Assembly (NCBI GenBank): GCA_001662655.1
Contig: KV460207.1
Reading direction: 5' to 3' (one strand)
Source of the DNA: Pseudogymnoascus verrucosus
Taxonomy: Eukaryota
Length of the DNA: 64,000 bases
The notes beneath the pieces were generated by a model. That model was not told the origin of the DNA and made no database searches. It saw only the letters and a list, made by a program, of their open reading frames with translations. Each line of letters begins with the position of its first letter. Within the stretch, counting starts at the first letter, position 1. This document shows positions 6,745 through 59,259 of this stretch, piece after piece. The translations under genes and the position numbers were made by a program.

Positions 6745-7015
6745 GCTAAAATTACCCCAAAATAGGAAACAGACGAGAAAGAAAGATGAAAGAAGCAAAA
6801 TTAACACTAGGCGTTACGTCGCCTCACCCAATCACCCCCGCTTTTCTTGCTCACCCCTTGCTGTTTTGCCTCAAGATCATCGTCAAATCGATAAGGGCCA
6901 AAATCCTACGTTAAATCTATTGGCACAATGGAGATAAAAAAAACAATTGAATACCGTGCTTGTGTATGGTTAACCTGGTGGGATGTCCAATTCTTTCGAG
7001 TCTATGGCATGTATT
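6745..7015 (-). repeat. Composite repeat copy B: degenerate 5S rRNA 5' half (about 6958-7015) fused to foreign body (6745-6957)
   Basis: 6958-7007 matches 59202-59251 at 40/50 nt without gaps. Body motifs cgcctcacc, tgctcaccccttgc, aagggcc and ctattggcacaatggaga match 48421-48620. Confidence 0.8.
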
Positions 7016-7125
7016 ATCATTCTCACATAGCAGAATATATACACCATTGCACCCACCACATTTATAGCCATGAAAGATCTGGGCGGTCTAGTGGTTCAGA
7101 GATTGACAATTAACGCTGCATTGCC

Positions 7126-8363
7126 TCAGACATCATTAAACATCAGCATGGGCGGTATAGGCATATCGCAAACTGCCCAGGTCCACGCTGCACTGGGAAG
7201 GTATTGCAAGGCAACCATTACCTCCATACCATAGGCGGCTGCCCCGAATACCTTTGGATCACATTCTTTTGCCTTTTCAATCTCATCGGGTGTACAAAGA
7301 GCGAGGAAGTGTTCTCGTTTAGGGCCGATTGGGAATGCGCTACTTCCATAGTTATTTATTGAAACGAGAAGAATGGTGGCAATTCTGCGACTTACAATGC
7401 ATTTCCAAGGATGCCGTGGCAGAGATTCGGTTCCTTCTTGAGGAGACCTCGACTCCATGTCGTTTCCCGTCCCCGTGCAATAGCCTGGTCGATGCGGCCA
7501 TGAAGTTCTGGGTAGAAGGGGCGCAGCGTCTGCAAAGCACAAACAAACCCGGGGGCTCCATGACAGTATTGCACTCGCTCCCACCCTTTCTCGGTTTCCA
7601 TCGTATCTCTACTGGACGGCCAATTACCATCTGGTCCCTGGAGACTCAACAGTTCCTCGACCTTCGCAGACAGCTTGGGTGCGAGTGACGGAAGAGTGAG
7701 TACTAGCTGAGTGATGATGCCGATATCGCCGTGAGGGGGACCGTAGCGCCTGTCTCCGTTCCACTCCCAGTTGCCCTTGCCATCGCTATCCGTGTCCATG
7801 ATTTTCCCTGCGAGTTTGGCTATCGGCTCCTCAAGGCTCGACGCACTGGCGGGCACCCAGTGACGCAACATCCGTAGTAGATACAAAGCGCCTGTCCTAC
7901 CATATAGAAGCTCGGTCTCGTAGGGGTCGCCTTGGTCCGTGGGGTAGGGCCCAAGCACCGCTGGCATGTCAGAAAGGAAAGCGAGTACATCGCCATGCTC
8001 TTTAGAGAGACAGGCCCACAGAGCCTGAAAGCAGAGTCTTTCGTTTAACAGGCCGCAACCCTGCTCCTTATTGACGATAAAACATTCGATCCCGGTCCTT
8101 TTGCCCTCCATATACCGCTTTGCCCAATAGATCAGATCATGGCCGAGAATCTCTAAGCCTGGGCGAAGAGCCGAGATCTGAAAGAAAAGAAAAGCAAGAC
8201 CCGTATAGCCCATGAAGAAGCCACTGGCTTGCTCTTCGTTATAGCTCTCCTTTGGGGGAAGTGTCTGTAGAATCTGTTCTAAGCACGACTGTAGAAGCTC
8301 CGAAGGTGGTGATCGCAGAGCTTGCGTTGGGATATCGTTTGAGATATACAGTATCTCTTCCAT
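7126..8363 (-). CDS. Lanthionine synthetase C-like protein (LanCL)
   Basis: Motifs ELLYGRTG, YGPPHGDIG, VQYCHGAPG and NLCHGILGN (Zn ligands Cys, Cys, His). One intron (gtaagt...tag) near 7340-7395 joins to AFPIGPKREHFL. Confidence 0.85.
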
Positions 8364-8456
8364 GGCAAATAGCTATCGCAGATTTTGACCTGTATCTTTT
8401 TAATTAGCTAAATTACAATATGTAGATAATTAGTCCCTAATCCCCAAACTTGACAT

Positions 8457-8690
8457 TGGAAAACCCCAAGCAAGTGCGACTACGAAACTGACACGAAATG
8501 TTGCTGCCTTCTCACCCCGCTTACCCCACCCTAGTCAGGAAGGTGCTTACCCCTCAGGCGCCTGGAGAGGGGGGATCCCAATTCCACGCTATACCTATTG
8601 GAACTATCGAGAGTAAAACCAAGTAATTACTCCCAGGCTTCTTGCTGAAAGGGTAGGACTCCCAGCCACCATAGTCTACGGTCGCATATG
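8457..8690 (-). repeat. Composite repeat copy C: foreign body plus very degenerate 5S 5' half
   Basis: cgaaactgacacgaaatgttgct, ctcaccccgc and attccacgctatacctattgg match 48460-48609. The junction cccaggctt (8632-8640) and agtctacggtcgcatatg (8673-8690) echo cccaagctt and agtctatggtcgtatgtg at 59197-59260. Confidence 0.7.
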
Positions 8691-9123
8691 ACAGTTGCTC
8701 TCATATCGGGGCACGCTGTTGACCATGAAGATAAAAGCAAGAATTGTCGTAAACTGTGAATCCTACTGAAGGAGTTGTTGTAGCCTTGCTAACAAAAGAG
8801 GTGGATTGTATTCGGTTCAGCAGCATTTGTCACAGTTGATAACGATCATACATCAAAAAAAAAAATAGTGCAGCTAAATAACCAAGCAGTTTTGGCATAG
8901 TATTATATTGTCGCTTTATTTACAACGCCTACCTTGACATATAACATGCCCAAATTTAACGCCGCATAACCCCCCATCAATCTGAAGACGATGATGGACC
9001 TGCCTTTTGCATCGTACAGCCAGCTAGGCTCAGAATGGCGGCTTGGGGTTTCAATTCATTTCCTATCGGGCGTGCCCTTCCTTGCTTTATTCAAGGAGTA
9101 ATCGCAATCCAGACACTGAGGAC

Positions 9124-10878: not shown

Positions 10879-11377
10879 ATTGACGGTGACGATGAATTTA
10901 GTTGCAGCGAATTCTCGTTGTCCATGATTCCACCCGGATTGATGGGACTATATATGCTTCCCCATAATCAGACCCTCGGGTTTCCCCCGCTTCCCCGAAG
11001 ATATTGTCAGCTGCCCCAACTCAAGTTCTCCATATCATGGCGATCCGGAAACTCGAGAGCTTCCTCTTTCCAATGTTCATGCTGCGATGTTAGCTTACGA
11101 GTGGGAACGAAAAACGCGGGGCGGTCAGCCGAACACACGCACACCATTGGCCGCGTGATCTCGAAGAATGGCACTTCATCGGTGGATACGGATTAGTGTC
11201 TCAGCATGCGTCGATGTAGTCAGGGCTGGTGTCGACGGAAAATTCGATCAGCATTGTTAAAATTCGGCTTAAAATGAAAATAAAATGCAGCTGTCTGACA
11301 TGTGAAGGTTGGCAACATTGGCAATAAAGTTTTAGGCGGTACCGGCGCTCCATTGAGCCGCTCCCACGAAATACTAA

Positions 11378-11418
11378 GCATTTGCAGGCATTTGCAGGCA
11401 TTTGCAGGCACTTGAAGG
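11378..11418 (+). repeat. 10-bp tandem repeat (GCATTTGCAG)x~4
   Basis: gcatttgcaggcatttgcaggcatttgcaggcacttgaagg read directly. Confidence 0.85.
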
Positions 11419-12678
11419 GATTTTGCAGGGTGGTATGGGACATGTGCGCGGCAATCGTTGATCGTGGTCATTGTGCAGCATAGTAGCATGGTGTTGTTAT
11501 GGCATTATTGGTATTTGTTGAGGTATTGCTGGAGTATTACTGGTGTAGCTGGCACGTGTGGAGTATGAAGCTCACGTATTCAGCGTGGGAGTCGAATGAT
11601 TAACCGGATCTGGAAATACGTGCGAGTCCAAAACCAGACCCCCCACGAAATATTCCCCGCAATTCGTGTAGTAACCCCTGTCATATAGCAAGGGTTCCCC
11701 TGTTCCCCCATGGGGAAAGAAGCGAACCAGCGAACCACAATGCCGGAATGCACGGCCATTGCTACTGTACACGGCATGGATCGGTTTGTTTATGCCAACC
11801 AATCCCAACATAACTCTACTAAACACTACTAGAGACCTTAGGCATCACTATACTCCCCGCTATATATATCGTTTTGTACGCTATACACGCTATCTAGTTC
11901 CCATGGGGTAACGAGACACCACACAGCAAAAAAACCTTAAGATTACTCAAGTGTAATGCGGGGAACACATGCCAATCAGCCAAACCTCGGTTATCCGGCT
12001 CAGGAACGGGGCGGAAGATCAGACACCACAGAATCTTCTACGTCCGACAAATAGAGCTTGCCTTATGAATGCGGGGAGGCTGAGGAAGGCTGACGGTACT
12101 GGGTAATGCCTGTCAAAGGTTGATCCACTCAAGGTTTCCCCACGATCCAGCGCGTGGAGGTGGAGAAAACCCTCAGACACCCCACGGAGAAGTACATATG
12201 TTCATCTGACAAGGAGAGCGGCAATGCTCCGCAGAATTATCAAGAAGTAATGTGATACTACGTGGTACTCTTGAAGCCCAAAAGTCTGAAGAGGGGCTGT
12301 GTTTAAGAGCAGTGATTATAGCAACTATAATTAACATATAGGCATTCAATCACTCGGAGCTGCAATAAATTAACAAGTCACTCATAAAATAGCAGTAAAA
12401 ATATAAGTTAAATAGGCTTAAAGGGCTAGTATCAATCCTCAGTAAAAGCCAGCTCCTCCTCAAACTCTTTGGGGAGTACGAGTAGTCCCTTCAAATTACT
12501 AGGGTTTGGAGGTCGAGATATAGTAGTATTCTCGTCATTCATGTGATACTGAGACGGAACATCTAAGACCGCCTCAACATTACCTACAGAACTAGTCTAA
12601 TGGTGCACCGCTATCAACACAGAGAGGGGTTCTTGACGTTGTAACCGACCCATTGTGCAACCGATGTCGCAACTAGCT

Positions 12679-13505: not shown

Positions 13506-14055
13506 TGTAAATTATGAAGACTATGACATGTGGTTTGTTTGTTCAAGCCAGGCATGGAAGGAGTTTTCTTTTCAATATCATCTGGAAGCACTCTTGACGT
13601 CATGGATATCATCACCCCACCATCGACATGATTATAGGCATCATGTTCCTGACTATATCTTATCTGCCCGATATGCTAAATCGAAATGATCATCATCGGC
13701 CATGTTATAGTTTTATTTTTGGCGTATTGTTTCCGGGTGATCCTCGGTGCCAATCGCCCCGAATAATTGAGCCAGGATCCCCGCATCCCCACTTCATATG
13801 TAACCTTTCTATACCTCTGACCCCCACGTTCGTAGAAGCCAAGTATCCATAATTTTGAAGAGAGCTGTACTTTGGTAAGTTTTTGTAGGATCCCCCCAGA
13901 TTCTACAGCTACATCGTCGGTATTGTCATCTTCAACTCAAATTCCCCATCATCGTTGTGTTGCGTGTTAAGTTCATTTTCTTACTATAGCTTCTCTAAGC
14001 TTCAAGTGATATCCTTGGTGCTGGCGACAGCATTGATGGCAAAGGTGGCCGCGCA

Positions 14056-23643: not shown

Positions 23644-23670
23644 GGGTTATTATGCTTGAGCTTCCATTCT

Positions 23671-23797
23671 TGAGTTATCATGGTTAGGTTACTGCATCCA
23701 AGCTACACCATCAGTCACTGTGTTCAAGCTGCACCATCTGAATCACTGCGTCAAAGTTACTACGTCTAGGTTACTATATCTGAGTTATTATATCCTA
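23671..23797. repeat. Degenerate 13-14-bp tandem minisatellite
   Basis: Units tgagttatcatggt / taggttactgcatc / caagctacaccat / cagtcactgtgtt / caagctgcaccatc / tgaatcactgcgtc / aaagttactacgtc / taggttactatatc / tgagttattatatc. Confidence 0.6.
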
Positions 23798-23807
23798 CTA
23801 AAATCTT

Positions 23808-31858: not shown

Positions 31859-31889
31859 ATGACAGAGCGGACGGGATGCCCAAGTCTCT
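31859..31889 (-). pseudogene. Short 5S rRNA gene fragment
   Basis: 29/31 nt identical to 59210-59240 (ttgggcatcccgtccgctctg core on the minus strand). Confidence 0.7.
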
Positions 31890-34120: not shown

Positions 34121-34231
34121 CCTCGGCTCACCTTGCTCATCCTTGCTTCACCCATTCAGGCAGCAAGGGGCTCAGATTCCACGCCATGCCTATTGGCACG
34201 ATTGATTATTAATCCATTAGATTACAAGCTT
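34121..34231 (-). repeat. Composite repeat copy D: foreign body ending at the CAAGCTT junction
   Basis: ggctcacc...ttcaggcagcaagggg...gattccacgccatgcctattggcacgattga matches 48529-48618. It ends in caagctt (34225-34231). Confidence 0.8.
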
Positions 34232-34253
34232 TTAGTAGATTAATACTCAGGAC

Positions 34254-42104: not shown

Positions 42105-44296
42105 ATGGCTGAACCGAAAGCAGTTGCACCTCTCGTCGAGGCTATCGACAAGTATGAGCTTCACGGTTCTTGATAATATTATACTCAAGCTAACCATTTC
42201 CTAGTAATGAAGCTGGCTACAACCCAGACCGCGTTAACCTGAACTCAAACATTTCGGGGAGGTAAGCTTTACGAAGCATTCGCTAAAAGGCTTGTGTTGA
42301 AAAAAACTAGAATAGAGAATCCACTCGCTGGTATTCCTCGCGACACCCTCCTCTTAGAAGTTGAGAAGTTTGCAGAGGAAAAGGCCCTCACTGAGCATGT
42401 CGATATCCTCAAAAAGGGTGCACTCGTCGCCCAAGATCCTCTCAATTATGAGGATATTACGGGCGAGCACAGCTTAACCGACGCAGAGGTTGAGGATCTT
42501 CGTAACGAGATTCTACACAAGTGGCGCCACCCAATGACTCTTTATCTAACCATCCTTCTTTGTTCCGTCGGGGCAGCTGTGCAAGGCTGGGATCAAACCG
42601 GTTCCAATGGAGCCAATTTGTCCTTCCCCAAATTTTTTAATATCGGGACTGAAAGCACCCGCGACCAGCTGCTTGTCGGTCTTGTAAACTCTGCGACATA
42701 TCTCGGCTCGTCTCTCTTCGGATGCTGGATTTCGGATCCTTTGAACTTTTATTTTGGACGCCGTGGCACAATCTTCTTTTCCGCCGTCTTCTGCTTCCTC
42801 CCGGTTATTGGCTCTGCATTCACACAGACTTGGCAACAGCTCTTCGCCTGCCGTATCCTGCTCGGATTTGGTATGGGCGCAAAAGGCTCAACTATCCCAA
42901 TCTTTGCTGCTGAAAACGCGCCTGCCAGTATCCGAGGTGCCTTGGTCATGAGCTGGCAGTTATGGACAGCCTTTGGAATCTTCCTGGGGTACTCTGCTAA
43001 TCTTGCCGTTGCTCATGTGGGAAAGAATGCATGGAGACTCCAACTTGGGTCCGCTATGCTCCCTGCCATTCCTCTACTAATCGGTGTCTACTTCTGCCCT
43101 GAGTCACCACGTTGGTGCATGAGTACGTACCTCCAACTGTTCTCAAATTTGAAATTAATGCTGACGCCGAAATATCAGAGAAGAATAGATACCCTCAGGC
43201 AATGGGGTCTCTATTGCGACTTCGCAACAGCCCGCTCCAAGCAGCTCGCGATCTCTATTACATCCATAAACAGCTCGAAGTTGAGGCGTCCATCATCGGC
43301 AAGAGCAACTACATAACTCGCTTTATCGAGCTCTTCACCATTCCTCGAGTTCGCCGCGCGACCCTTGCCTCTTTCACTGTCATGATTGCGCAGCAAATGT
43401 GCGGTATCAACATCATCGCATTCTACTCTTCCACAATCTTCGTGTCGTCTGGCTTTGATCAGTATCAAGCACTGTGGGCTTCGTGGGGCTTCGGTCTTAT
43501 CAACTTCCTTTTTGCGTTCCCTGCACTCTGGACCATTGACACGTTTGGGCGACGAGCACTGCTCCTCTTCACGTTTCCCAACATGGCGTGGACGCTCTTG
43601 ACTGCCGGACTCTGCGCGCTGATTCCCGTACACTTTAAAATCCACTTGGGGTTGGTGGCATTGTTCATCTATCTCTTTGCCATGTTCTACTCCCCAGGTG
43701 AAGGGCCTGTCCCATTCGCATACTCGGCTGAAGTCTTCCCATTGTCCCACCGTGAAGTTGGAATGGGCTGGGCTGTGGCAACATGCTTTTTCTGGGCTGC
43801 TATTCTTTCGATCTTCTTGCCACTCATGTTGGTAGCAATGTCTCCCACCGTAAGTTTGCACCGAATTCTATTCTAATTTCTCCAACTTGCCGCTAACTTA
43901 TATGAAAAGGGTGTGTTCTGCTTCTATGCAGGAACTAACCTTATTGCCTTGGTCATGATATTCCTCTGGGTTCCCGAGACCAAACAGCGCACACTCGAGG
44001 AGCTAGACTACATCTTCGCCGTCCCTACTCGCACCCACATGCACTATCAGATCAACAAGGCCCTTCCGTACTTTATCCAGAGATGGGTCTTCTTTAATAA
44101 AAACGCTGTCCTCGAGCCTCTTTATAAATTCGACACTGCCGGGGCGACTGACAAGTCTAGAATCGCGGATATGCATGCAAATGACCTCCGACGTGCCGAG
44201 CTGCGCAATGATAACAGTGCCTCCGATGAGAACGTGGAAAAGACTGAGAAACAAAATGAAGCTTCAGACGAGATTGTCGAGAAGGTTCGAGAATAG
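42105..44296 (+). CDS. MFS sugar-porter family transporter (polyol/myo-inositol-like)
   Basis: Multi-exon. Motifs [35 protein letters not shown] and [12 protein letters not shown]. Confidence 0.92.
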
Positions 44297-44856
44297 ACTT
44301 TCTATTAGAAATTGATAAGTTACGCACGAGGTCTAGTGAGGCGAGAGACAGATTGGGGGGGTTATTGTCTTGGAACTGCTAGTGGATAGTTTGGTAGACA
44401 TCGCAGCAGTTATGAATTTAACTCCATAATTCGAGATTGGTTGCTGGTGCAGCTACAAATTGTAGAAGGTCTTCTATGGCTGAGGATTGTGAAGAAATGA
44501 AAGCCCCAGTTATGACTATAGCCCACACAAATCGCCCAGTTATGAGAAGGAAGCCAATGAATTTTATTTCTTCCATTCATTGCCGCCCTAAAGCATGACT
44601 TCTAATTGGGCCGTATTCGCCTTGCCGTTTGGTGAGAAGGAGAGTGGTGCATGTTAATGATCTCAATATATGGGAAGATATTTGAGTCACGGTCTAGGTG
44701 AGATTTCAAGGGCATGATTATTAGTGCACATGAGAACCATGCTCATGGTAAGTCTTGTGTATTTATTGAAATCTAGTCTTTACCTATATATAATTCAAAT
44801 TTGTACAGTACAGCTCAGCATGCTCCCAATAGGCGATTACTTTCGCTATAATCCGA

Positions 44857-45450
44857 TCACGGTGGGACGACCACATCTAGCGGGACGCAGGGATAGTTCT
44901 CATGGGAACCAAATCTCTCTTCATCGATCCAGTTCTGTAATGCTGTGTTGGTATCGCACACTGGGATTCCCACAACACCTGGTGAGCGAATGCCCATGTC
45001 ATACAGGCTGCTTGCCGTCTTGCTGTCATTTGGGTCGGCTAATTTGCAGCCATTCTTATCCCCATTAGCATGGTATCCGTTGACGCCGCTAGAAATCACT
45101 ATGTTAGATATTGTACTGTAAAAATCCAGTCCACGAAGAAAAGATACAACTCACCCTACTACGAAATCATCGAGCTTCACGCCACCCCAAAGTTTGCCAT
45201 CTAGTTTATCAATGCCAGCGGGTGCCGAATAATAATTATGCTTGCAAAATCCCTCGCGGCCAGTGGTGCATGTGGCAACAGTTCCCTTCAGAACGACGAG
45301 GTAGTAAAGCTTGTTGCCAGCGCATGCCCAAGTCCAGATACTCAATGGTGAGATCGAAGGTGCCGCAAGGAACACCAGCGTCAAGAATGAATGGCTTCTG
45401 GCTCGACAGCTGCCATGCGCTAGGGATAAGATGAGCAAATAGAGCTCTCT
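44857..45450 (-). pseudogene. Frameshifted 3' remnant of a conserved fungal hypothetical (probably secreted) protein gene
   Basis: RALFAHLIPSAWQLSSQKPFILDAGVPC sits in one frame and shifts to TWACAGNKLYYLV...APAGIDKLDGKLWGGV. After an intron the reading is GIRSPGVVGIPVC...NYPC. No 5' portion was found. Confidence 0.55.
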
Positions 45451-46266
45451 AGGTAAACGAGGATTTGCTATTGCCAAGGTGCCAGGCTGCTGTCGTCGTT
45501 GTTGCAGCTGTTGCAGTTTTGCTGGCTATATTTCAGACGTGAGTCAGTCTCTCTAGAGATCGACAAGGGTTAGAATCCTCCACAGCCACGGTAACTCAGC
45601 ATTCCTTCAGATAGTAGACTAACGCCTAAAATGGTATTCCCCGTAACGGTTTCATAGCGCTATGTCCGAAATGGTTTCCCGCGAAACGGTTTCACGGGAG
45701 CCATGAAGGACAAATGCTCTTCAAACTTTGGTCTTGGAAAAAGCTTGACAGGATCGATTTCAATTCCAAACAATACCATTGAACTTCTCAACAGTTGCAG
45801 GGCATTTCGGTCTAAGCACCATTTGTGCTCACAAGGCAGACTACTACGTATACGCCTCGCGTGATTAAGCAGGCCAGACTCCATGATCTGAATTATAAAA
45901 AACTAATAAAGTACTCTTCCATCGCCCATCATGGACCTTACATCACGTGCCTCCACAGTCAAAAATAACGTGACTTTCCCAAATATATTGTGTGAGTTAC
46001 GAGCGTAAACCAAACTTGTAGATTATTACTGGGCTACGGCCTTTACTTATGCCGTAGCCTTCGGAGCTATTCTCCGTACGAAACATACTAATTTTTCACT
46101 AAGTCCAGCTATGTAAACCCGTGATCTCTGCCTGATTCTTCAGGCCAGAATCACAATTGCGAGGTCATCGTTACCATTGACATCAATGATATCACCACCC
46201 GAGTCACTCCGTCACCGCCATAATATCGCATTCACGTGCTAAATCTCCAATGCCTCATCCGCGAAG

Positions 46267-48077
46267 ATGTCCCTCTCCCTCCGTCGTGCCTTAACATACA
46301 GCCTCAATCGCAATCCCAGTCCGTCCTTGAACGCTAGAAGAACACTGCATTCCTCGCGCGCCATGGCTGAGGTGAAGAAGACCACGCCGAAAATGAGGCA
46401 GCGGGATATTGTGTCAAGTTTCTTGTGCGCGCCGCCGGTGGAGGAGGGCGGGCAGCATCGGTTCGTGCTGTTCAAGAGGAGCCAAGAAGTGTCTTCTTAT
46501 CGGTAGGATATATTTTTAATTACAGCTATCATTTTAATCATACGTCATGATATATCCACCCTATTTTTTATTATACAGATAAACCTACCCGTTTACCTTA
46601 CCCACTACTCCCCAAAATAATACCCAATGCACAGCCATCTCTAACACACACCAGCGGCAAATGGGCCGTCTGCTCCGGCACAATCGAGGCCACAGACGCC
46701 AGCCCCCTCGCAGCCGCCTACCGCGAAATCGCCGAAGAAACCCAACTCACCCCCCCCTCTATCAGCCTCCTCCGGCGCGGCCGCCCCTTCACCCTCCGCG
46801 ACGAAACCATCAGCACAGACTGGACCATCCACCCCTTCGCCTTCCTTCTCGCCTCTCCTGACACCCCCTTAACCATAGACTTCGAACACACCGAGTACAC
46901 CTTCGTGACGCCCTCCCAGCTCTCTGAGTACGACACCGTCCCAGCCCTAGCAGACACGACACTCCGCGTCCTTCCCGGCGCGGAAGTCGAAGACGCACTC
47001 CGCACACTCCGCTCGGACCACACCTCCGGCGCCACTGCCCTGGCCACCCTCGCGCTACTCACCCTCCGTCGCGCCCTCCTCCCTCCTCTCTCCACGGCCC
47101 CAACCACGGCTGTCCAATGGCGCGCAACCCGCCTCCTCGCCTGGACGCTCGCGAAGTCCGCGCGTCCCGCCATGGCGCCCGCGATCGAGGCCTCAGTCTT
47201 CGGGGCGCTGGAACGTATTTCGCTTTCTATTGGCGGTGTGGGAAAAAACGATGACCTCAAAGTAGCGATGGAGGCGTTGCCGATAGAGGAGTTTAGGCAG
47301 GTGGCTACGAAGGCGATTGAGGATGTGATGGAAGCGAGGGAAGAAGCGGTGTTGAAGCTCGCTTCGAACTTTACGGCGTGCGTGCAGCATAGTGCAGGGT
47401 ACCAGGCTGCGTTTACGGAGCAGAGGCCAGTGACGTTGGTTATCCTGTCTGCGTCGGCGAGTGTAGCGGCCTGCGTAGCGGATCTAGCTCGCGCGGCGGC
47501 GGCGACGAAGATGGGTGTTAGGGTTTTAGTATTGGAGTCGCGGCCGGGGTTTGAGGGTGTTGATATCGCGAGGGCGGTACTGGATTTGGTGGGCTCGGAT
47601 GCGGAGGTTGAGATGCAGATCTTGACTGATGCGGGGGTGGGGTGGGCGGTGGGGGAGGCGGATTTTGTGATGCTTGGGGCGGATAGGGTGACGGGGGAGG
47701 GGGATGTGAGTAATAAGACAGGATCGCTTGCTGCGGCTGGGTTGGCACCCACGGTGGGGAATGGATGTAAGGTTGTGGTTGTCTGCTGTGAAGAGAAGAT
47801 TATGGGTGATGATGGGGGTGGGGAGGGGTTGGCGGAGGCGGAGGCGGATGGGGGAGAGGAGAATGAGTCGTCAGAGGTGACGGCGGCCTGGCCGGCGAGG
47901 GCGAAGGAGGTCGGGGAGCTGGAGGGTGTTAAGGTGCGGAATCCGTATTTTGAATGGGTGCCGAGTCGGTTTGTGGATGTGTATGTGACGGAGGCAGGGG
48001 AGGTGGGAGTTGAAGGGTTAAAGAAAGTGGCACGGGAGAGGAGGGAGTTGGAGGAGCGCTTATTTGATGGTTTGTAG
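46267..48077 (+). CDS. NUDIX hydrolase fused to an eIF2B-alpha/ribose-1,5-bisphosphate-isomerase-like (IF-2B) domain
   Basis: Exons 46267(or 46363)-46502 and 46655-48077. Nudix box SGTIEATDASPLAAAYREIAEETQL; IF-2B motifs DHTSGA, RPAM, ESRPGFEG, GADRV...NKTGS and NPYFEWVP. Confidence 0.88.
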
Positions 48078-48420
48078 AGTGATATATGGGTGTTATTTAT
48101 ATTAAGTGGGAAGGTGTATGATATTTATAATATCAAATAGTTATTTATATAAAGTGCAAAGGCATAGGCTAATTATAACATTGAAGATTAGCACACGATA
48201 GCAACAACTTTCTCTACTTATTAAAAAATATCCAAGCAACATATTCGATACAAAGACCCTATCGTATGCATTAGAGGGCCCCATGTGCAGTGCGCAAAGG
48301 AATCTAAAGTTGCATAGATATTCATTTTAGAACTAGCTACAGGTTCAACATCTGTTCTATGCATCTAAGATCTATACCAATGGTTCAAGCGAGGTCTGCA
48401 TATTTATATAGGGTAGGTAA

Positions 48421-48644
48421 GCTAAAATGGCAAACCCCGGCACTATTACGATAATAACGCGAAACTTACACGAAAATGTTGCTTCGCCTCACTCACCCCG
48501 CTCACCCCACTCACCTTGCTCACCCCCCGGCTCACCTGCCTCGCCCTGCTCACCCCTTGCCTCACCCTTCAGGTGGCAAGGGCCCGCGATTCCACGCTAT
48601 GCCTATTGGCACGATTGAGACTATTAGCCAGAGGATACGCAAGC
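48421..48644 (-). repeat. Composite repeat copy E: best-preserved foreign body, with CTCACC array, ending at CAAGC
   Basis: Shares blocks with copies B, C and D. 48613-48644 equals 59172-59203 at 30/32 nt. Confidence 0.85.
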
Positions 48645-48914
48645 AATCCTCTGGATAATACTTGAATTGGTGCCATCGGGCCAAGTGGGTGAGCTTCGCT
48701 GCCGTTACTCTTATTTTGTGATCACGACCGCCTTGACTACCTCGACCACCCAAAAGTGAATCCGTTTTTTACAACATGATAGGACGGCCTATACATGAAC
48801 AACACATGAATAACATATGAAAATAGATCATAATACACAGCACAGTTCAAAATAAAGTTCTAATTTTAACAAGAAGCCCTCTTTCAGTGATCATAATTTG
48901 CGACTGAATCCTAA

Positions 48915-50607
48915 TCAAGCTCTTATAGCATTCTCTACAATCTTCAACGACACGACCAACTCCTCATCCCTTCCAGGGCGGCCCAAGATTTGAAATCCAG
49001 ACGGCGCACCTTCCACATCCTTGGGCAGATATGCTGGAACATATGAGACATCGCGGCGAAAGGGAACATCAAGTTCGGCATTAGCGTTGCCATGTGGAAT
49101 GGAAACTGAAGGGTAATCGACCAGATTCGCAAGAAGAGTATAGAACGCAGGACCGTAGGTATCGTGTCCAACAGCAGTTCCTTGGTACACAGGCATAATA
49201 AGAACATCAAGCCCCTCCTTTACCCATGCATTTTTGAACTGGTTACATACCTCGCGCCGCTCGAGGTTCACACGGAAGGCATCGTCGACGGTTGGCTGGT
49301 AGTGTTTGAGTTCTGGCAGAGAAGTGTTGGATATGGACGGAATGGGTGGTTCGCCGGATACCTTTAGCTGAGAGAGGATATAATTGGTGGGATCCATGCT
49401 AAATAGGTAATAAGCAGTAGTAACGGCCTTGTCAAGGAATTGCGATGGTAAATGCTGCTCCATGTTCACAACAATGTGCCCTGCTATCTCCAATTTCGAA
49501 ATGGCGTCTTTGAAAGTCCGCAACACAGATGGGTGGAGAGGGAATTTATTGCTTTCCGTGACAAAACCGATTCGAAGTTTCTTCCCGGCTACCTCAGAGA
49601 TGCTTGGAGACACTGACCGCCATGGTGCATACATCGCAGTTTCGTCCAGAGACCAAATATCATTTTCGGCACTTAGAAAATTCTTGAGGAAGTATTCGAC
49701 ATCCCGAACAGAGCGTGTGAGTGGACCACCTGTTGAAAGGATGCCCCACCCGCCTGGGCGAGCGGCAGATTCCTGGCCAGCAACGGGAAAGCGACGGGCA
49801 GTAGGTCGGAACCCAATTGTGCCGTTCACATAAGCTGGAATGCGAATGGAACCTCCAATATCAGTCCCGACTCCAATGATGGAGCCCTTCATGGCGAGAA
49901 GAGCTCCTTCGCCACCAGATGAGCCGCCAGCAGTTAAAAGGAGGCTGTGGGGATTAAGAACCCGCCCGAAAAGGTTGTTATCAGATTCTGCAGTCATCAT
50001 AGTTTGTGGGATGTTGGTCTTGACATAAAGAACCGCACCTTGACCTATGAGGATCTGCGCCACAGCTGAATGGGACTCTTCAACAGGACGTTCAACAAAC
50101 GAGATAAACCCAAGGGTAGTTCTAACGCCTTCTACCGCAAAGCATTCCTTAATAGAAATCGGGAGGCCATGAAAGGGTCCTAATGTCTTCTTCTCTCTCG
50201 CTAGGTAATCGTCGCAGAATTTTGCGCGCTTGAGAGCAATGTCAAAAAATGTTTCGGTAAGGCAGTTTGTCTGTATTTGTTAGCTTAGTTGAGATAATTT
50301 GTTAACAATGGTAATATACTAATTGTTGGGCAATCGCAGCACGCTTGCAGAAGGCTGTAGTGACGGCAACAGATGTGAACTTCCCCTGTGCTAACAATTC
50401 GGCCATCGCCACCGCATCATAATTTTCAGTGATGTCTAATTCTTCCTTTGTCAAAATGTCGCATGTTCTTGGAATATCCAAAACGTTCTGCTCTGAAGTC
50501 TGAGAAATATTATCCGTAATCGAGGCTGGTAGTCGCCATTCCTTTGGGATTTTCTCGGCCATAATTGAGCGGTATCTCGCAGCCGATTCTTGCCATGTTG
50601 CCATCAT
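48915..50607 (-). CDS. Amidase-signature family amidase (acetamidase/general amidase-like)
   Basis: Two exons (intron about 50319-50271). Motifs KRAAIAQQL|TNCLTE, GLPISIKE, GGSSGGEG and GTDIGGSIRIPA. Confidence 0.92.
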
Positions 50608-50957
50608 GAAAACCAGTGTTTGGTTAAAAGACTAATTTTGAAACTGTGTTGTCAGGTAGTAAATTGTGAACGGATTGGAAATGTAGGAAAGAAAGAAGGA
50701 GGGGGATAATAGGAGCAGCTTTATATATTTAGCAAATATATACATTCTAAACCCCGCAAACACCCCATGTTCCACTACCAGCTCCACAATGTCCAAGGCA
50801 CCCAAGTCGACGTCTAAATTCATTTACCAGGCCTTAGTCGAACCTTGGGGGCCGTTCAGGTTAGTAACTATTGGGATATCCGATTTCATGCCATTGGCGT
50901 TAGCCAATCAGGTGTAATTGCGCGCTACTAACAATATCCACAATTAGTCACATCCAC

Positions 50958-51396
50958 TAATCGTGGGTGGAAGCAAGTCCGGGCACTGGAAGCAAGTGCG
51001 CGCAACCAGGGCCAAATTTGCAGGTATCTTTACATAGTAAATTATATGTAAAAGTACAAATGGTCAATAAATTGTAATAATTACTATGCTATTTCTAACA
51101 CAAAAGTACATATAAATAATAATAAACATTCTAAATGACTTCATTAAAAGAGAAATAATAATACATTAATATACTCTATTACCTATACTAGAATATCTAA
51201 AACTTAATAGTTATATAAAAGTGTTAATTAATAAAAAGGTAATAGAATTACCCTCGTTTTACAGCGCGTTTTTTGGTAAGGAAAGCAAAATTACTATGTA
51301 ATTTGCAAACTCTATGTCACTTTACACCTAATTTACTATGTAAAGATACCTGTAAATTTGGCCCTGGTTGCACGCACTTGCTTCCACCCACGATTA
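50958..51396. mobile_element. Tc1/mariner(pogo)-type MITE, about 440 bp
   Basis: About 68-bp TIRs (taatcgtgggtggaagcaagt...ccagggccaaattt.caggtatctttacatagtaaatta), with a 19-bp internal duplication in the left TIR, TA at both ends, and a very AT-rich interior. Confidence 0.88.
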
Positions 51397-51704
51397 TTCG
51401 TTTATCCTCAAACCACGAATTGAGGGAATAAGAATTTCAGGGAATAAGGATTTCAATAAATTTAGTAGGGATAGAGGGTGCGGAAGAAGTGACCGTAGTG
51501 ATTCTCTTTCTCCTCTTTACGCGCTCGTCGTATATGGCCGGCCACAATTAGCAAACTCCCAAAGTCTCCCAAGCGCATCTAAGTTTGAAGAGGTTTTATA
51601 TCGTAACTAGAGAGAGCGTTATTTTATTTGTAGCATTATTTATGGAGTAATTTAAGTAATGCTTTTATATGAATAGCTATATGACTATAAGTAAATATAA
51701 AGGT

Positions 51705-53295
51705 TTAAATCTTTGCTTTCCATATCCATTTATAGTCAAGGCATGCCCATCTCGCTATTAAAATGGAGAGAAGTGCCAGGACCAGAATTCCGCCTGAGAA
51801 AGCAACGTATGCAGTCGTTCCTGCAGCTGACTGCAGTTCTGCTGCAATAGGAATAGAAATTAAAGTGCTAGGCGTAGTGTTAGAATTTTCTCGATTGTTT
51901 TGCGATTTAGCACTTACGCAAAAGCCACTGCACTATAGCTTGTGCCATACCACTGACCATACTCGCTCACTTTGCAAAGGTCTCCAATACACACCGGAGC
52001 CAAACTAATTACACTGCCAGAACCAAACCCAAAAATGGAAACCATGACGTAGAACAGAGCTACGTTATGTCCAACTGGTAACCAGAGCGCGAATGTTGCA
52101 AATATGGAGATTAGAACAAACAGTGCCATGCAGTTGAACCGACCATAATAATCAGCGACTAGCCCAGCGGTATAGCGTCCCAGTCCGGAGCCACTTTTGA
52201 TAATTAGTTTCCAACTTCAGATGCAAGAGACATTCTTACGCATTAAAGACTGCAATCGCGTTAAAGCTCGCCTGATGACCGAAGCCCTGTTCGAGGGCAA
52301 AAGTTGGAAGAAGACCAATAGCAGTGTAGAGAACAAACTCGAAGCCTACCAAACTCTTGTCAGTAGATTTAAATTTGAAGAGGCATCCTTTGGGTTAACT
52401 TACACGCAATTCCAACAGTTGCCCAGGCAAATCTCAAGTCCCGAAAGCATTTCAAGCTGATGACGCCTCCTTGTTTTCCTGTTGGTAGGCGACCTTTAAT
52501 GAAAATATTTCCAAACACCACAAACACAAACACAATTAGACTTAACAACCTCATTGCCCAAGCCCAGGACAAGCGCTCCAAGATTGGATTCAGTGCTAGC
52601 GGGAACATTATTCCTCCTAAACTCGTCCCCATGAAGGCAACCCCAGTGGCCAGTCCCCTCCTGGCCTCAAACCAATGTGATACCACTGAAAGGGCTACAG
52701 TTGTAAGTATCGCGCAACTAATCCCACCTAAAACACCAAAACAGAGAAAAAAATGCCAATATTTCGTGCATTCACCCAAAATCAGCAAATAAGCAACACA
52801 CCCGACAGAGCCTGCGAACGTCAACCATCTTGGTCCATATCTATCGAAAAGCGGACCAATCTGCACACCGAGAAAAAGAGTTAGGAAGATTTGGGTTGAT
52901 GATATCCATCCTATATCTCGAGAGCTGTAGGTTGACAGTTGGTGCGACTGCCAGTAGGACTGGAAGAGCCCGATGCAGCTGCCGAGTCCAAATGTGGCAG
53001 CGATTAGGCAGAAGCCGGAGAAGACGACGAGCCACGCACTGAGACCTCCCTCAGGAAACGACAAGGCAATGGAACGGGGTTGTGATTGCTGGAGTTCTAG
53101 TTGAAACTCCTCTTCGTCATTCAGTGCTGCTGTAAATTCTGACAATATTGCTGGTCGGGTTTGGGGAATTGTAGCGTTTTGTGCCTGCGGCAATTCTCGT
53201 TGAATTTTCTCTTCATCTGATGGTGGGGCGGATGTTGCTAAAGTTATCATGCTTGTTTCGATTTTTGAAGTGGTATATGCCGCTGTCTCTGCCAT
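51705..53295 (-). CDS. MFS monocarboxylate-porter (MCT/MCH-like) transporter
   Basis: Multi-exon. Motifs FPEGGLSAWLVV, GPLFDRYGPR and HWFEARRGLATG; ends ARWACLDYKWIWKAKI*. Confidence 0.88.
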
Positions 53296-53489
53296 TTACG
53301 GAACAAATGATCAGGGTAGTTATGCCTTAACGGAAAGTCAAGTCAGAGCAACTCAGAGCGAGAAGTTATAATAAGGTCGGAAGATTAGGGAGGCTTCCCA
53401 ATTTTTGGCCCCCTTACATCAATTTAACTTTTTCACGTTTCTGAAAAGATAACTGAGTTCAATCGGAAACAAATAGAGCCTCTAGTGTA

Positions 53490-54015
53490 GATGTCTCCTA
53501 TTGGAAGAATCTTATTTTTTTCAGGTAACATCTCTTAAGCTTCCTCGTTGTCCACCTTCCCAGATTGAATACAAGCTAACGGAATCTCTCTCTGAAAACG
53601 TGGAGGCCCCAGCGCAAATGCCTCCTATTGGAAGAACCTTGCTATTCTTAATCAGGGATATTTAATCCTTCCCGCTGTTCAGCACCCCAGATTCAATAAA
53701 AGCCAACGGAATTTCTCTATGAAAACGTTGGAAGCCCCAGCGCAAATCTATCCTATTGGAAGATCCTTGTTCATTGTTCTCTTCAATTGAGAGGGAGATC
53801 CACATCTCTAAAGCTTCCCCGCCGTCCACCTCCCCGGATTTAATAAAAGTTATTAGAATCTCCCATAACGTGGAGGTCCGGCGGAAATAGCTCCTATTGG
53901 AAGAGTCTTGTTCTTTTAGTCGTGGGGATTGTCCACCCACTAGCTTCCCCGCTGTCCACCTTCAAAACAAACTAACGATTTCGTAAGCGAAAACATGGAG
54001 GCCAGGCGCAATTAC
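53490..54015. repeat. Four diverged tandem units of about 127-141 bp in a divergent promoter
   Basis: Core tcctattggaaga at about 53496, 53623, 53751 and 53892. Each unit also has cttcc.cg.gtccacc and aaacgtggaggcc..gcgcaaat variants. Confidence 0.85.
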
Positions 54016-54078
54016 ATATGACTGGTCTTGATTTTACACTGCCTTGATCCAGCGTTACTTAAGCTTGCCTAGATTGTT

Positions 54079-54188
54079 GTGGGGAACCCCGCAAATGATA
54101 AAGTGGCAACGAATTAGGGTCCACGATACAAAGCACTAAAAGCTGGACTCCGATTGATCGTCATTTTATCATTTGCGGGGTTCCCCAC
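54079..54188. repeat. 110-bp hairpin/inverted repeat upstream of the DAL5-like gene
   Basis: Perfect 24-bp inverted repeat gtggggaaccccgcaaatgataaa (54079-54102) / tttatcatttgcggggttccccac (54165-54188), with imperfect pairing continuing inward. Confidence 0.85.
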
Positions 54189-54334
54189 TTCAATTTGGAG
54201 AAACAAGATGTCAAGTGAAATGTACCGAAATATAAAGCTCTTCGCATATCTAATATATCATGGATGTCGGATAGTCAACTTCTACAACATTTGCCAACCG
54301 TGGTATCCAGACACTAAACTTTGATATCGAAATC

Positions 54335-56125
54335 ATGGCAGAGAAGAATACAGAGGCTGATTTGCCTGGTTTCCGTCATCTTGAGATGTCCTCTGCAGAT
54401 TTGAGGAGAGACTCGACATCTGATAACTTGGCTACTCTCAAGACTGACATTAGAGACATTGCAATCATTGAAGTGACGGATGAACAGAATCGCAGAGTCT
54501 TGCGCAAGATTGATCGATGGTGAGAAACTCTAAAGCCAACCCAAGCTTCCAAAAACTGTTAGCCGCCCATTAACAATGAGCTTAGTCTCCTCCCCATTAT
54601 GGGTATCGCCTTCATGCTTCAATTCCTTGATAAGGCTGCTCTAGCAGCATCGACTTTGCTTGGCCTGCTCGATCCGACAACAGGCGGGATCGTGAGTTTA
54701 TTTCCCCGTTTAAAAGGACATCTCTATGAGGAACATATCAACGAGTCTAATTCTATAAACAGGCTTTGGTAGGATCCCAATTTGCATGGTGCTCTTCGAT
54801 TTTCTACTTCGGGTATCTTGTTTTCAGTTTCCCAAGCGCCTACCTTATCGTCCGCTTGCCAATCGGAAAGTACCTAGCTTCCGTTGTTATACTCTGGGGC
54901 GGGATATTAATGTGCACCTCTGCTTGCAAGACATTTAGTGCCTTGATGGCTCAAAGATTCTTTCTCGGTGTCGCGGAAGCAGCCATCACACCAGGGTTTT
55001 CTCTCGTCACTGGGATGTTCTACACGCGTAAGGAGCAGCCTCTACGCCAGGGTGCATGGTTTATTGGAAACTGTCTTGCTCTCATACTAGGTGGACTGAT
55101 TACGTATGGAGTCAAGAACATTCCTAACCCTCCTCTTCCACATTGGAAATTATTGTTTCTGTTTGAAGGAGCTGCTACTTGTGCATATGGAGTCTTCATG
55201 ATCTTCGTCTTACCAGACTCTGTTATGACAGCCTGGTTTTTAAATCATGAAGAGCGCACCATTGCCTTAGCCCGTACATTGAAGAACAAGACTGGCGTTC
55301 TCGACAGCGGCGTCTTTAAATGGGAACAATTCAATGAGGCATTTCGAGATCCACAAACGTGGCTCATTGCGCTCTATAATGTTGCCATCAATCTCCCAAA
55401 CGGTGCTTTAAACACGGTATGTCACTCGTTGGAGTACATTGCGGTATTATAACTAAAACCTGCGACTTTAGTTCCAACCTCTTATTGTTAATGGCTTAGG
55501 CTTCAACACTCTCACCTCAATCTTGCTCCAGATGCCAACTGGTGGAAATGAAATCGTCTTCCTCCTCATCACCTCTAGCCTCGCCTCATTACTTCCGCAC
55601 GCGCGTGTTCTGATTATGATTTTTAATTGTGTTGTCGCCATGGTTGGCATGGTCCTAGTGTACAGTCTCAAGTCCCAAGCTGGGCAAATGACCGGTGTCG
55701 TCTTCGCCGCCACATACGCCATCAACATCCCTATATTTCTCAGTCTAATCACATCTAACGTTTCGGGCTTCACCAAGAGAAGCACAGTTAGTGCGATTGT
55801 GTTCGTGATGTATTGTGTTGGTAACATCGCTGGTCCGCAGTTTTATCTCGAGCGTCAAAAACCACGATACCAGGTGCATTGCGACCCCTTCCATATTCCT
55901 TACTGCTTGCTAACAACAGAATAGATGGGTCTAATATCCTCGCTCGTCGGATATGCCGTTGGCATCACCTCTCTCATTTGCCTGTACGCTTATTACCGGT
56001 ATGAGAATCGTCGGAGAGACAGGGTGTATGGTTCTGAATCAGAAGTCAACACTAACCAAGAACTCACCGATGAGTTGTCTAACGAAACCGACCGTACGAT
56101 TACTAGCTTTCGCTATATGATGTGA
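54335..56125 (+). CDS. MFS anion:cation symporter family, allantoate/ureidosuccinate (DAL5-like) permease
   Basis: Multi-exon. Motifs RVLRKID, LQFLDK, SIFYFGYL, RFFLGVAEA, FYTRKEQPLRQGAW, SNVSGFTKR and GNIAGPQ. Confidence 0.9.
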
Positions 56126-56897
56126 AGTTTGGTTGAGTCCTGGTCAAACGTTTGTATGCTATATACTTCAGGCGCGCACTGTTGTCTTCTAGAGAGCAAA
56201 CAGAGCTTAACAATAGTAAAAACTTTCTAAGAATACTCCCATCTACAAATATATGTTGAGTTTAAAACTTACAAGTAATATTGCGGTCAACTATGCTTCA
56301 GGATGAGATCAATACAGCGCATACTATAGCTTCCGGTTTGTGCTGTCGAGTTTCAGAAGCTATATCAAATGAGTCTGTATTTCATTTCACTCTCACAACC
56401 TCGCTAGTTAGTACACTGAGGGGGCCTTCTTGAAGATCGGGCCATCAAGCCAATTTACAATGGGTGAACTGATAGATACAAAAGTCTTTAATAGCTAAAG
56501 CACTCTGAAAACACACTAGGCTGGGTACAAAAATGGTTATTGGATGTTAGTACTTAACTAGCACGAAGGCCACCAGCCAGTTGATATTGAGGTCGACAAC
56601 ATGATCCTAGATATCTCTCTCCTCACTTCTTTCACATTACTCATACACCTACAAGTCCCCCTATTTCCGAAATCATTTCCCAAACGCCACACGATTCGAT
56701 TAAAACCCTTCCGCAGACTAACTTTGTGAAATCTCAGATTCGTGATTACCAAGAAGCTCTCTGAGTCCTATTCTTAATCTGTTAAGAATAGGGAAGGGAA
56801 CGTAATCAATGTCCTACAAGATGACTGTTATGGCTAATACTGACCATTCTACTCAGGAAATCTTGATTCAAATCACATCTTCTGAAACTTCTATAGT

Positions 56898-58439
56898 TTA
56901 CTGTAGCCCAGGCATACCCACAAATCGATCGAGCCGTTCTTGCGAGACTTCCATGACTCCACAGCCATCGATGACCCGCAGCGTCTCCGCTATCCTGTCC
57001 TTGATTATCCTCTTAGCACCCACATCCGTCGCAATATGTTGAATTATACTTAGCGGCCACAAGTTGTACTTGCTAAACAATGGCGTAACCGCGACTGCAG
57101 TTATTTCATTAACGAAACGGTTTATATCCGCCTGGGCCGAATCTTTCAAGCTTATTCCCTCTGGCTGCTGCGACAAAACATCCTCTAGCAAGACTTTCGC
57201 AGCTAGAATATACAGTCTCCCTGGTGAAGACGCGTTCGACGCTAGAAAATTTACCCATTGATGCAGTTCTGTTATTGCAAACGCTGCAATAGCGAGATCC
57301 TCTTCGCCTAAGGGTCTGCGCCGCCGCGCAAGATTTGAAATGATGACGATAAGGCGAAACAACTTATATGGTACACCTAACACCGGCCAGCTCTCCCAGT
57401 TCTCATCACTAGGGAGCAGAGAAAACTGAAAATATTCATCGATCATCTGCCATGCCTCACTGCTAACTAGGACATCGAAGTCAGGGTCGTAAGTCATCAT
57501 GATTGTGCCATGGTAGAGCAGCGATTCGTAGCATTTGCGCTCAAAAATTACATGTAGTGCCTCTGGGTCGCATTCGGCTTCTGTCATTCGGGTCGCCTGT
57601 CGACACTTGAGCAGCTGCATAATCGCGCGAATATGTGTCCCTCTCGACCAGGTGGGACAGCTCAGATCCCGATTAGCTAGTATCGTGAGCAGGATGACGG
57701 CGCCTAGCAGCCAGTCTTCGGTGCCGTTCACACTTCCGAGCTCAATGCATCCTCGAATGGAACGTATGGCGGCAGTTTGGTGGGTTAAAGCTCGTTGACG
57801 CATCCTCATAACGGTTCGCCGATCCGAAGAGACCATATAGGAGATGGACGTGGCAGCGCAGGCTAAAGCCGCTTCCATCACGGGAATATTTCCCAGCGCC
57901 AAATTAATCCAGTAGGCGCCATTGTGAAACCGTGGATGAGAATGTTCATGGATTAAACAGGGGAGAAAATGTTTCACGTAATATCTGAACAGGTCGTCGT
58001 CACCATTCCCATGGAATGACACTACTGCGTGATTTGACCACAAGTCGACGATGCAGTTGCTTAATTGATTATTGCCGACTATCCCATGGGGTTTTGTTGG
58101 ACCTCCAGTCGCAATTGTAGGCGAAGGCGAAGATGATCTGTCCTCGTTCGAAGTCGAGGTCTTTGATTCCGATCTCGATGATCGTATCGACCGCGTTCGT
58201 CTCCGGCCATCCTCAAGCAGGTGCTGAGAGCTAGGCCACACGCATTTCATAAGGACGTGACGACAGCCTCCGCATCTTGGACGCACTTCATCACATTTCT
58301 TCTTACGTTGTCTGCCTATAGCGAACGTGAGCCGAGAAACTTAATAGGAAAAGGAGAACCGAATAAGTTACGCACAAGAAATGCAGCCGGTCTTTGTCCG
58401 TAGACGCGCATTGTTTGTAATTGCCGGCATTTCGATCAT
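56898..58439 (-). CDS. Zn(II)2Cys6 transcription factor
   Basis: Exon 1 ...RTKTGCIS|C spliced to RQRKKKCDEVRPRCGGCRHVLMKCVW gives the six-Cys binuclear cluster. A fungal TF middle region follows. Confidence 0.88.
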
Positions 58440-59198
58440 CACATCAAGATCGATATAATATATTATCTATCACGATTCATGATCTACGGTTGTTGATTTC
58501 CATTGGAATGCGGGGTAAAGGTTACAGAGAGTTGCGGGGTAGCATCTCCATTTTGTGGTATCTAATAACCGAACCGCTTTCACGCTAGAATGTATTCAAC
58601 AATTCATATTGATTCCGATTTCCTATAGGATAATTAGAGATCACATATGGTGGGAAATGACAACCTCCAAACTTATAAATCTTTGACTCCAGCCGGCAGC
58701 CAGATTCTGGTCGGCGGCAAGAACCTAGCTGGCTCATAATAGTTGCGAACCCACACCATAACCCCGCGTCCGATTTTGACTTATTAACAACTACATGTTC
58801 GCCACAGCACCAGACCTTCGCCAAAACTAAGTCGCTCCAAACCGTTAGAGCTTGGAGCAACAGCCTTGCGGGAACCATAATTTTTGACAAGAGAAGAAAC
58901 ATTGAATATTTGAGTGCCACTCGACAAACTGCGTGAGATGGGACGGGGAGATAAGAGAGCGGTGTAAGTTGAGAATACAGACAGAATCGGACAAAGTATA
59001 ATGGTTACGAAACTTTCATGATATTGAACTACGTACGTACAAAATCTGACTATCAAATTCGGAGCCTCAACAGTCACACAATTGGGTCCGTTGTGTATCA
59101 GGCGGCAGACTTCACATCAATGGATCATAAATCGGATCCAGACAGTGAATTTGTTACGAGTCAGCTGGCCTGATTGAGACTATTACCCAGAGGATACC

Positions 59199-59259
59199 CA
59201 AGCTTGTGTATGGCAGAGCGGACGGGATGCCCAATTCTCTTGAGTCTATGGTCGTATGT
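59199..59259 (-). rRNA. 5S rRNA gene, 5' half only (interrupted at about nt 61)
   Basis: The minus strand reads ACATACGACCATAGACTCAAGAGAATTGGGCATCCCGTCCGCTCTGCCATACACAAGCTTG, a typical Pezizomycotina 5S start. A TATA lies about 28 nt upstream. The 3' half (box C, GGGTGACCACC) is replaced by foreign sequence. Confidence 0.88.

Follow-up and report, generated by a model that had tools for sequence, protein, structure and literature searches.

Within a 64,000-nucleotide (nt) stretch of Pseudogymnoascus verrucosus DNA (contig KV460207.1, assembly GCA_001662655.1), referred to here as the window, the first part of a 5S ribosomal RNA (rRNA) gene breaks off and continues into a foreign sequence, the block, that recurs elsewhere in the window in the same orientation. 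What kind of event left such junctions behind? The analysis points, with a probability of roughly 0.68, to upstream integration scars of 5S-targeting, Starship-type elements resembling Osiris of Aspergillus fumigatus, which are now without their captain recombinase and fixed, with at least one tandem junction.

Truncated 5S rRNA genes and a foreign block recur on one strand

The junction at 59 kb comprises three features:

59199-59259, minus strand: 5S rRNA gene head, nt 1-61, adjoining PIN4-like and CDO genes (pairwise match to the 5S gene of locus L016; nhmmer)
59281-59288: TATA-like TTATAGAG, at about -30 relative to the 5S head at 59199-59259
59166-59198, minus strand: first 33 nt of the foreign block (nhmmer model positions 62-94 and alignments); the rest of the block is absent here

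The head is 91.5% identical over 59 nt to a bona fide 5S gene of another fungus, the intact gene at L016:5186-5305, which itself scores 75 bits against the Rfam 5S model. Rfam sees the 59-kb head weakly, at 14.3 bits and E 1.9, when 221 nt are searched alone, and the whole window gave no 5S match, whether the cut-off was the gathering score or an E of up to 10; ARAGORN found no tRNA in the window. The first-pass annotation, made from the letters of the window, had described a 5S 5' half with an upstream TATA, broken at nt 61, and this is borne out by the L016 match and by nhmmer. We read 59199-59259 as the remnant of a one-time 5S gene that has PIN4-like and CDO genes as neighbours.

An nhmmer profile built from eight metagenome copies of the block from other fungi, with the window sequence excluded, gave six matches in the window, all six on the minus strand (chance about 1 in 32):

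59259-59166, minus strand: 5S head and start of block; E 4e-27
48644-48443, minus strand: block without 5S head; E 4e-36
34124-34232, minus strand: block copy with AAGCTTG core, without 5S head; E 8e-22
31859-31889, minus strand: sixth 5S piece, nt 20-50 alone with no block after it, newly found; E 2e-5
8482-8687, minus strand: decayed 5S head (~8634-8687), then block; E 7e-13, model positions 3-220
6795-7007, minus strand: decayed 5S head (6958-7007), then block; E 3e-23, repeat family D7

The recurrence of the foreign sequence at the sites named earlier, always in one orientation, is thus upheld by both the repeat families and the strand of the profile matches, and the five window copies of the block can be aligned with one another. 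The decayed heads reported at ~7.0 and ~8.6 kb are likewise real: a repeat search of the window (families D3, D6 and D7) gave 80% identity between 6958-7007 and 59202-59251, and the nhmmer match at 8687 starts from model position 3. Two parts of the earlier description held only in part. The foreign sequence does recur at five sites, but the 59-kb copy retains just ~33 nt of it, and the junction with a 5S half, found at 59, 8.6 and 7.0 kb, is missing from the copies at 48 and 34 kb, which have no 5S head. Absent from that account was an inverted copy of the block (48645-48703) directly before the 48-kb copy.

Each unit is ordered in the same way, from 5S nt 1-61/63 into the foreign block, then into GGTGA-rich repeats and finally into sequence of variable length. 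The AAGC motif is followed by 18-24 nt that differ by subfamily, the subfamilies of this variable segment being common to the window's genome and the metagenome fungi, and then by a conserved core of ~50 nt. Beyond the core, GGTGA occurs up to eight times per 150 nt where 0.17 is expected, confined to one strand, and the longer copies carry TTTCGCGTCA repeats and additional sequence past the GGTGA region. The most complete block of the window, in which GGTGA occurs seven times in 150 nt, lies at 48 kb:

48417-48637, minus strand: conserved core with the CCAATAGG motif, seven GGTGA, then TTTCG(T/C)GT repeats; no 5S head

The GGTGA-rich and TTTCGCGTCA repeats are putative recombinase-binding sites. 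As a separate candidate, derivation of the block from a diverged 3' part of the 5S gene was rejected, with alignment scores at shuffle level.

The break in the 5S gene is constant and the heads bear promoters

Contigs of four public runs, X1 as the possible source of the window and X2, X3 and X15, which bear other organism labels, as relatives, were aligned to 44001-64000; statements on genome-wide multiplicity rest on contig counts from these runs and are not copy numbers. The block family is dispersed, with many copies in the window's genome and in the three relatives. Contigs from elsewhere accumulate over the 5S head and over the 48-kb block, where at position 48583 alone 19, 15, 17 and 18 contigs of the four runs have a different letter. 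Copies cease to resemble one another at 59199 (5S nt 61) in 6, 7, 15 and 17 contigs of X1, X2, X3 and X15, respectively. At least nine X1 joints, among the 15 listed of 72, connect 59172-59219 with the 48-kb block and represent further copies in the genome, with the block placed behind a 5S head. Among the X1 contigs listed, there are at least 15 block-type junctions versus 30 contigs carrying upstream flanks of 5S heads.

A scan of metagenome contigs for an exact match to a 21-letter block motif gave 17 loci, 16 of them distinct (L011 is L004). The exact core match that was required partly predetermines how conserved the core looks among these loci; the window copies, which were not chosen by exact motif, still match the profile at E ~1e-13 to 1e-36. 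The expectation that the 5S gene is always broken at the same base is borne out at nt 61 in the window's genome and at nt 59-63, right before the block, in 12 of the 16 distinct loci, the remainder having decayed or partial heads (three) or none (L006).

Upstream of 5S nt 1, the flanks are unrelated between copies. A TATA-like motif is present at -38 to -19 of 13 of 14 heads, against 16% of random 20-mers, and also in the intact L016 5S gene; L011 (duplicate), L006 (headless), L002 and L013 (decayed heads) and L010 (flank too short) were left out of this count. Since the flanks are unrelated and the TATA is positioned, every head is what remains of a different 5S gene with a promoter, and lies outside the copied unit. 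L016 alone among the loci has an intact 5S gene (5186-5305), which lies 70 nt upstream of a stump with block (4955-5108), and a remnant of a 5S 3' end occupies the equivalent position in L005 (4805-4828); stumps can therefore stand in tandem with a working 5S gene.

The 3' limits of the unit vary greatly. Likeness between copies ends at +34, +67, +98, ~+190, +272, +464, ~+1250 and ~+2900-3150 nt after the core, and three loci, L004, L006 and L007, have ~2.9 kb after the block in common at ~87% identity, with different upstream flanks. These stretches (L004:5000-8000, L006:1870-5020 and L007:1-2800), all from one metagenome data set, contain no open reading frame (ORF) above 200 amino acids (aa) and no Pfam match, and two of them stand behind different 5S heads and one in a palindromic junction. 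The shared stretch could be a recently multiplied captain-less element. In these ~3 kb and in a shorter stretch shared with L008 there are 94 ORFs with lengths of 55-129 aa; nine overlap block or head and were left out, and the other 85 had no Pfam family, longer ORFs being scanned separately. Between the window and the metagenome loci, no orthology was found beyond the repeat itself.

A fixed start with a variable end bears directly on the alternative named in the first-pass annotation, a 5S-derived short interspersed nuclear element (SINE) of the class to which Repbase assigns SINE3-1_AO, in which an RNA polymerase III transcript from the 5S start is copied back by a long interspersed nuclear element (LINE). 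Such an origin would give the sharp 5' limit at 5S nt 1, and a run of five T ~135 nt past the core could terminate a transcript of ~230 nt; RT-PCR products from two of five AfuSINE3 copies, the related entries of A. fumigatus, are reported in an excerpt of PMC5063351. The 3' ends here are not fixed, however, and likeness extends to ~3 kb, past the T run, which is the reverse of the 5' truncation and fixed 3' end of retroposons, and there is no A-rich or LINE-like tail. Because the 5S likeness ends at nt 61-63, the head is also without the intermediate element and box C, going by the positions of these in the 5S internal promoter, and so stops short of the full set of box A, intermediate element and box C. 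Retroposition does not supply a positioned 5S-type TATA upstream of the heads, the predicted RNA structure of head plus block shows no covariation (term +0.08; compensatory change in one of 23 pairs), and all six window copies are on one strand. Taken together, the variable 3' ends, the promoter-bearing flanks and the absence of 5S sequence beyond nt 63 make a SINE very improbable.

Two headless junctions are palindromic, one of them bounding a candidate module

The 48-kb copy and L006, both headless, consist of an inverted block, a short core and a block. None of 1000 shuffles reached the inverted-arm score at either (local alignment score 18 at the 48-kb copy). By the same analysis, the head-bearing copies have no inverted arms, all 12 tested being at chance, and no significance attaches to the upstream inverted arm of the 34-kb copy, whose score was attained in 101 of 1000 shuffles. 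A profile search of the window for further inverted blocks gave a weak one at 48645-48675 alone, with E 10 by itself.

The inverted block-core-block arrangement is read as tandem docking, in which a kept core separates the right end of one element from the left end of its successor. On this reading, 48645-59198 would be a 10.5-kb module with both of its ends, candidate module E1, made up as follows:

59166-59198, minus strand: start of the block behind the 5S head, read as the left end of E1
48704-59165, minus strand: interior of candidate E1 (Pfam scans; collinear in X2, X3 and X15; boundaries putative)
56901-58340: Zn2Cys6 regulator, in E1 (Pfam)
51917-53295 and 54751-55921: major facilitator superfamily (MFS) transporter genes, in E1 (Pfam)
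50958-51394: insert resembling a miniature inverted-repeat transposable element (MITE), in E1
48918-50279: amidase gene, in E1 (Pfam)
48645-48703, plus strand: inverted shortened block, read as the right end of E1 (arm alignment; aligns with the palindromic form in L006)
48638-48644, minus strand: core GCTTGCG between the inverted blocks (read from the sequence; resembles 5S nt 56-63, AGCTTGGG)

The core agrees with the left repeat of the 48645-59198 segment in six of eight letters. The earlier proposal that the accessory genes form successive cargo modules stands to the extent that 48645-59198 carries a block on one side and an inverted block with core on the opposite side; for the other segments no far end can be demonstrated, and none was found in the window for the other four junctions. 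As an alternative to tandem docking, a break at the junction followed by fold-back repair could have produced the palindromic form.

Several observations concern the interior of this segment and the surroundings of the junctions. The MITE-like insert has 87-nt inverted arms (50987-51073 and 51300-51386; 84% complementary); X3 is without the 437-nt insert, a contig there joining 50957 directly to 51395, and other copies pile up in all four runs, one contig having a copy beside a 5S head. Between the two divergently placed MFS transporter genes, 53474-53910 contains four tandem repeats at ~128 nt spacing, each with CCTATTGG (a CCAAT box on the other strand), in which the CCAATAGG octamer of the block core also occurs. 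At the 16 metagenome loci, housekeeping genes (DEAD helicase, folate synthesis, 2-oxoacid dehydrogenase, diphthamide synthase, SMC, MTHFR and PC4) lie on the 5S-head side and transporters, regulators, P450, methyltransferases and a histidine kinase on the block side, a contrast across the junctions that, with no control count, is suggestive.

A proposed correspondence of the junctions with the ends of Osiris and with fungal SINE3 entries

Comparison with published systems draws on excerpts of PMC12153272, PMC5063351, PMC9156397, PMC5203791 and PMC5555474, and likenesses to printed sequences are by eye. The Enterprise-family Starships of Aspergillus mostly have 5S ribosomal DNA (rDNA) targets, and 5S targeting has arisen at least five times among Starships (PMC11162782). 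Osiris, a member of this family in A. fumigatus, inserts in 5S rDNA and disrupts the gene, its insertions can cluster in one 5S-rich region, and the curated direct repeats of Osiris h1-h4 are aagcc, ttaagccac and aagccacacg (PMC12153272, supplement Table S3). The break in the block family falls on the AAGC motif, which is this direct repeat, at the same 5S site, AAGCC(ACACG). The first-pass annotation had named Voyager as an example. This giant element of Macrophomina phaseolina also disrupts 5S genes, always 20 bp from the 5S start and not at nt 61-63 (PMC9156397), and belongs to a different family; the site here fits the Aspergillus Enterprise-family elements. The more general proposal, that the junctions are 5S genes joined to the end of a 5S-targeting element family, is sustained by the constant break, the TATA-bearing heads and the Osiris direct-repeat motif.

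A second correspondence comes from five "5S rRNA-derived SINEs" of A. fumigatus, AfuSINE3, described in 2016 as related to Repbase SINE3-1_AO of A. oryzae, with the head kept over positions 1-64 (PMC5063351). AfuSINE3-3c contains AAGCCACACG, in which 16 of 17 letters are those of the curated terminal inverted repeat of Osiris h3, together with 18 of 18 letters of the predicted upstream terminal repeat of h3 (PMC5063351, Table 1). For Osiris h4, the Af293 copy is given under record NC-007196.1 (PMC12153272). AfuSINE3-3a is located on chromosome 3 and includes AAGCCACATG as well as 13 of 13 letters of the upstream terminal repeat of Osiris h4, followed by GGGTGAG repeats. We take NC-007196.1 to be A. 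fumigatus chromosome 3. AfuSINE3 and the block also have their motifs in the same order, namely the direct repeat, TCAA.CGTG..C, GCCC.TT...GC.GCTTT...GGGTGA, GGTGA repeats and CCGTCT.T.GC; judging from the printed AfuSINE3 sequences, the upstream end of Osiris leads into GGTGA-type repeats, as the block does here. AfuSINE3 and SINE3-1_AO further share with the block family a 5S head, a non-5S body with GGGTGAG repeats, variable tails and a low to moderate copy number. At the level of sequence, the correspondence between AfuSINE3, Osiris and the block is a strong lead. AfuSINE3 was published as a set of non-long-terminal-repeat retroposons, whereas the evidence here points to a head that is the stump of a host gene and a body that is the end of an element. 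An older account may belong to the same series: Borsuk et al. (1988), a reference of PMC5203791, name in their title A. nidulans 5S pseudogenes with a conserved associated sequence resembling a mouse immunoglobulin switch region, and, compared by title alone, the truncated 5S genes with a conserved attached sequence and GGGTGAGC repeats found here fit that likeness, with unusual conservation in the two cases.

The interpretation favoured here would run as follows. Site-specific integration into a 5S rRNA gene would leave behind the host promoter and nt 1-61/63, and the AAGC motif would be the point where this stump meets the terminal region of an element of the Osiris kind (Enterprise family). 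The sequence past the terminal region, which differs from copy to copy, would be cargo. A new element might then dock at the core retained at the end of an older one, giving headless inverted block-core-block junctions and same-direction arrays.

A pseudogene family offers another route to several of these features. An ancestral fusion of truncated 5S gene and foreign sequence could have been spread by ectopic recombination or one-sided gene conversion from the shared head, for a variable distance downstream, which would account for the fixed 5' limit, the variable 3' extent, the lost 3' halves, the lack of a recombinase gene, the many fixed copies and the well-kept heads. Truncated 5S pseudogenes are reported to form 18-83% of 5S sequences in filamentous fungi (PMC5555474, citing Rooney and Ward 2005). 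Spread of this kind gives no reason for a break on the direct repeat of 5S-targeting Starships, nor for a block core that is conserved across organisms while its surroundings are not, and it leaves both the palindromic headless junctions with their retained core and the by-eye match between AfuSINE3 and the Osiris ends unexplained. We consider it unlikely.

Starship membership

Against the interpretation of the junctions as scars of Osiris-like Starships stand the following points. The first-pass annotation looked to a DUF3435 recombinase beside the copies, and none was found: Pfam detected no DUF3435, other recombinase, reverse transcriptase or transposase in any of the 162 window ORFs of at least 90 aa, and none of these in the 236 ORFs of the 16 metagenome loci, apart from a lone weak DDE match in L010 that was below Pfam cut-offs. 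A captain is expected downstream of the block because the 5S head of Osiris abuts the captain side, and 12 metagenome loci offered at least 2.7 kb there for the search. No 5S 3' half follows any copy in the window or the metagenome loci. The segment 44001-59228 is collinear in X2 (three differences in 7887 nt) and X3 (~98%), with pieces in X15, and therefore no empty site and no sign of gene variability were seen in the three relatives, nor the intact 5S gene beside PIN4 for which the first-pass annotation proposed to look. The X2 and X3 contigs reach 28-30 nt into the 5S head, which is below the 31-letter bridging rule. The copies per genome are many, exceeding the published counts of active Starships, and just 1.5 kb separates those at 8.6 and 7.0 kb, an interval without any far end. 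Resemblance to the Osiris ends was assessed visually on sequences in print, with no statistics, and at 60-300 nt the inverted arms exceed in length the terminal repeats of 8-17 nt listed for Osiris. Osiris has a captain recombinase, measures 37-138 kb on average and is variably present among strains (PMC12153272), whereas the window pieces are captain-less and fixed in three relatives, and the sole two-ended module, at 10.5 kb and with long inverted arms, is unlike it.

Some of these points would suit the end of an undescribed 5S-specific DNA element outside the Starships, small or non-autonomous, with long terminal inverted repeats and the same site by convergence. Its inverted arms could differ from the short Starship terminal repeats as those of the headless junctions do, no captain gene would be expected, the ~3 kb with few ORFs common to L004, L006 and L007 might represent it, and the repeated origin of 5S targeting among Starships makes convergence plausible (PMC11162782). 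A transposase is equally missing, however, bar the L010 match, and in its architecture and order of motifs the block is similar to the A. fumigatus sequences in print that have Osiris motifs; such an element appears quite unlikely.

Since neither a captain nor polymorphism among the relatives was found, the junctions are not filed as Starships, though they behave like the ends of such elements. As scars of the Osiris-like kind, the window elements would be relics or non-autonomous derivatives rather than active Starships.

Other features of the window

A further short dispersed repeat is present at 2401-2458, 4456-4580 and 12264-12388, the copies being 64-74% alike (families D2 and D5). At 62841-62981, a run of CAG/CAA codons (glutamine-rich) lies within the open frame 62548-63999, which runs off the window.

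Implications

The kind of element described here is known; its members are new, as is their apparent identity with published 5S pseudogenes and fungal SINE3 entries. A literature search, outside which subscription journals lay, found no paper linking 5S pseudogenes, SINE3 entries and Starships. The two main Starship papers make no mention of SINE, AfuSINE or Borsuk, and in the single Starship paper found to bring up both 5S rRNA and pseudogenes, "pseudogenes" means recombinase genes only. A broader proposition is offered tentatively, at somewhat under even odds: that 3'-truncated 5S pseudogenes of the Aspergillus type, together with SINE3-1_AO and AfuSINE3, are upstream junctions of Enterprise-family Starships, that a large share of the 5S heads here are old borders, and that repeated docking builds captain-less cargo arrays beside core genes.

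Bacterial integrative elements accrete in tandem at tRNA genes, where a core is kept at the ends and docking in the same direction builds islands. If the proposition is true, the arrays here would be a eukaryotic counterpart of these genomic islands; by this analogy they would differ in that the gene is not restored, a stump being left, and in that no recombinase is present now. Three literatures, on 5S pseudogenes (1988 onward), fungal SINE3 (2006, 2016) and 5S-targeting Starships (2022-2025), would then concern one object, and repeat libraries would need correction, their entries not being retroposons. Truncated 5S genes would serve as cheap genome-wide markers of past Starship integration, including captain-less insertions turned into ordinary chromosome, and the regions downstream of stumps would become datable and testable as former cargo. 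The conserved core and GGTGA repeats, finally, would be candidate DNA for recognition by the captain recombinase.

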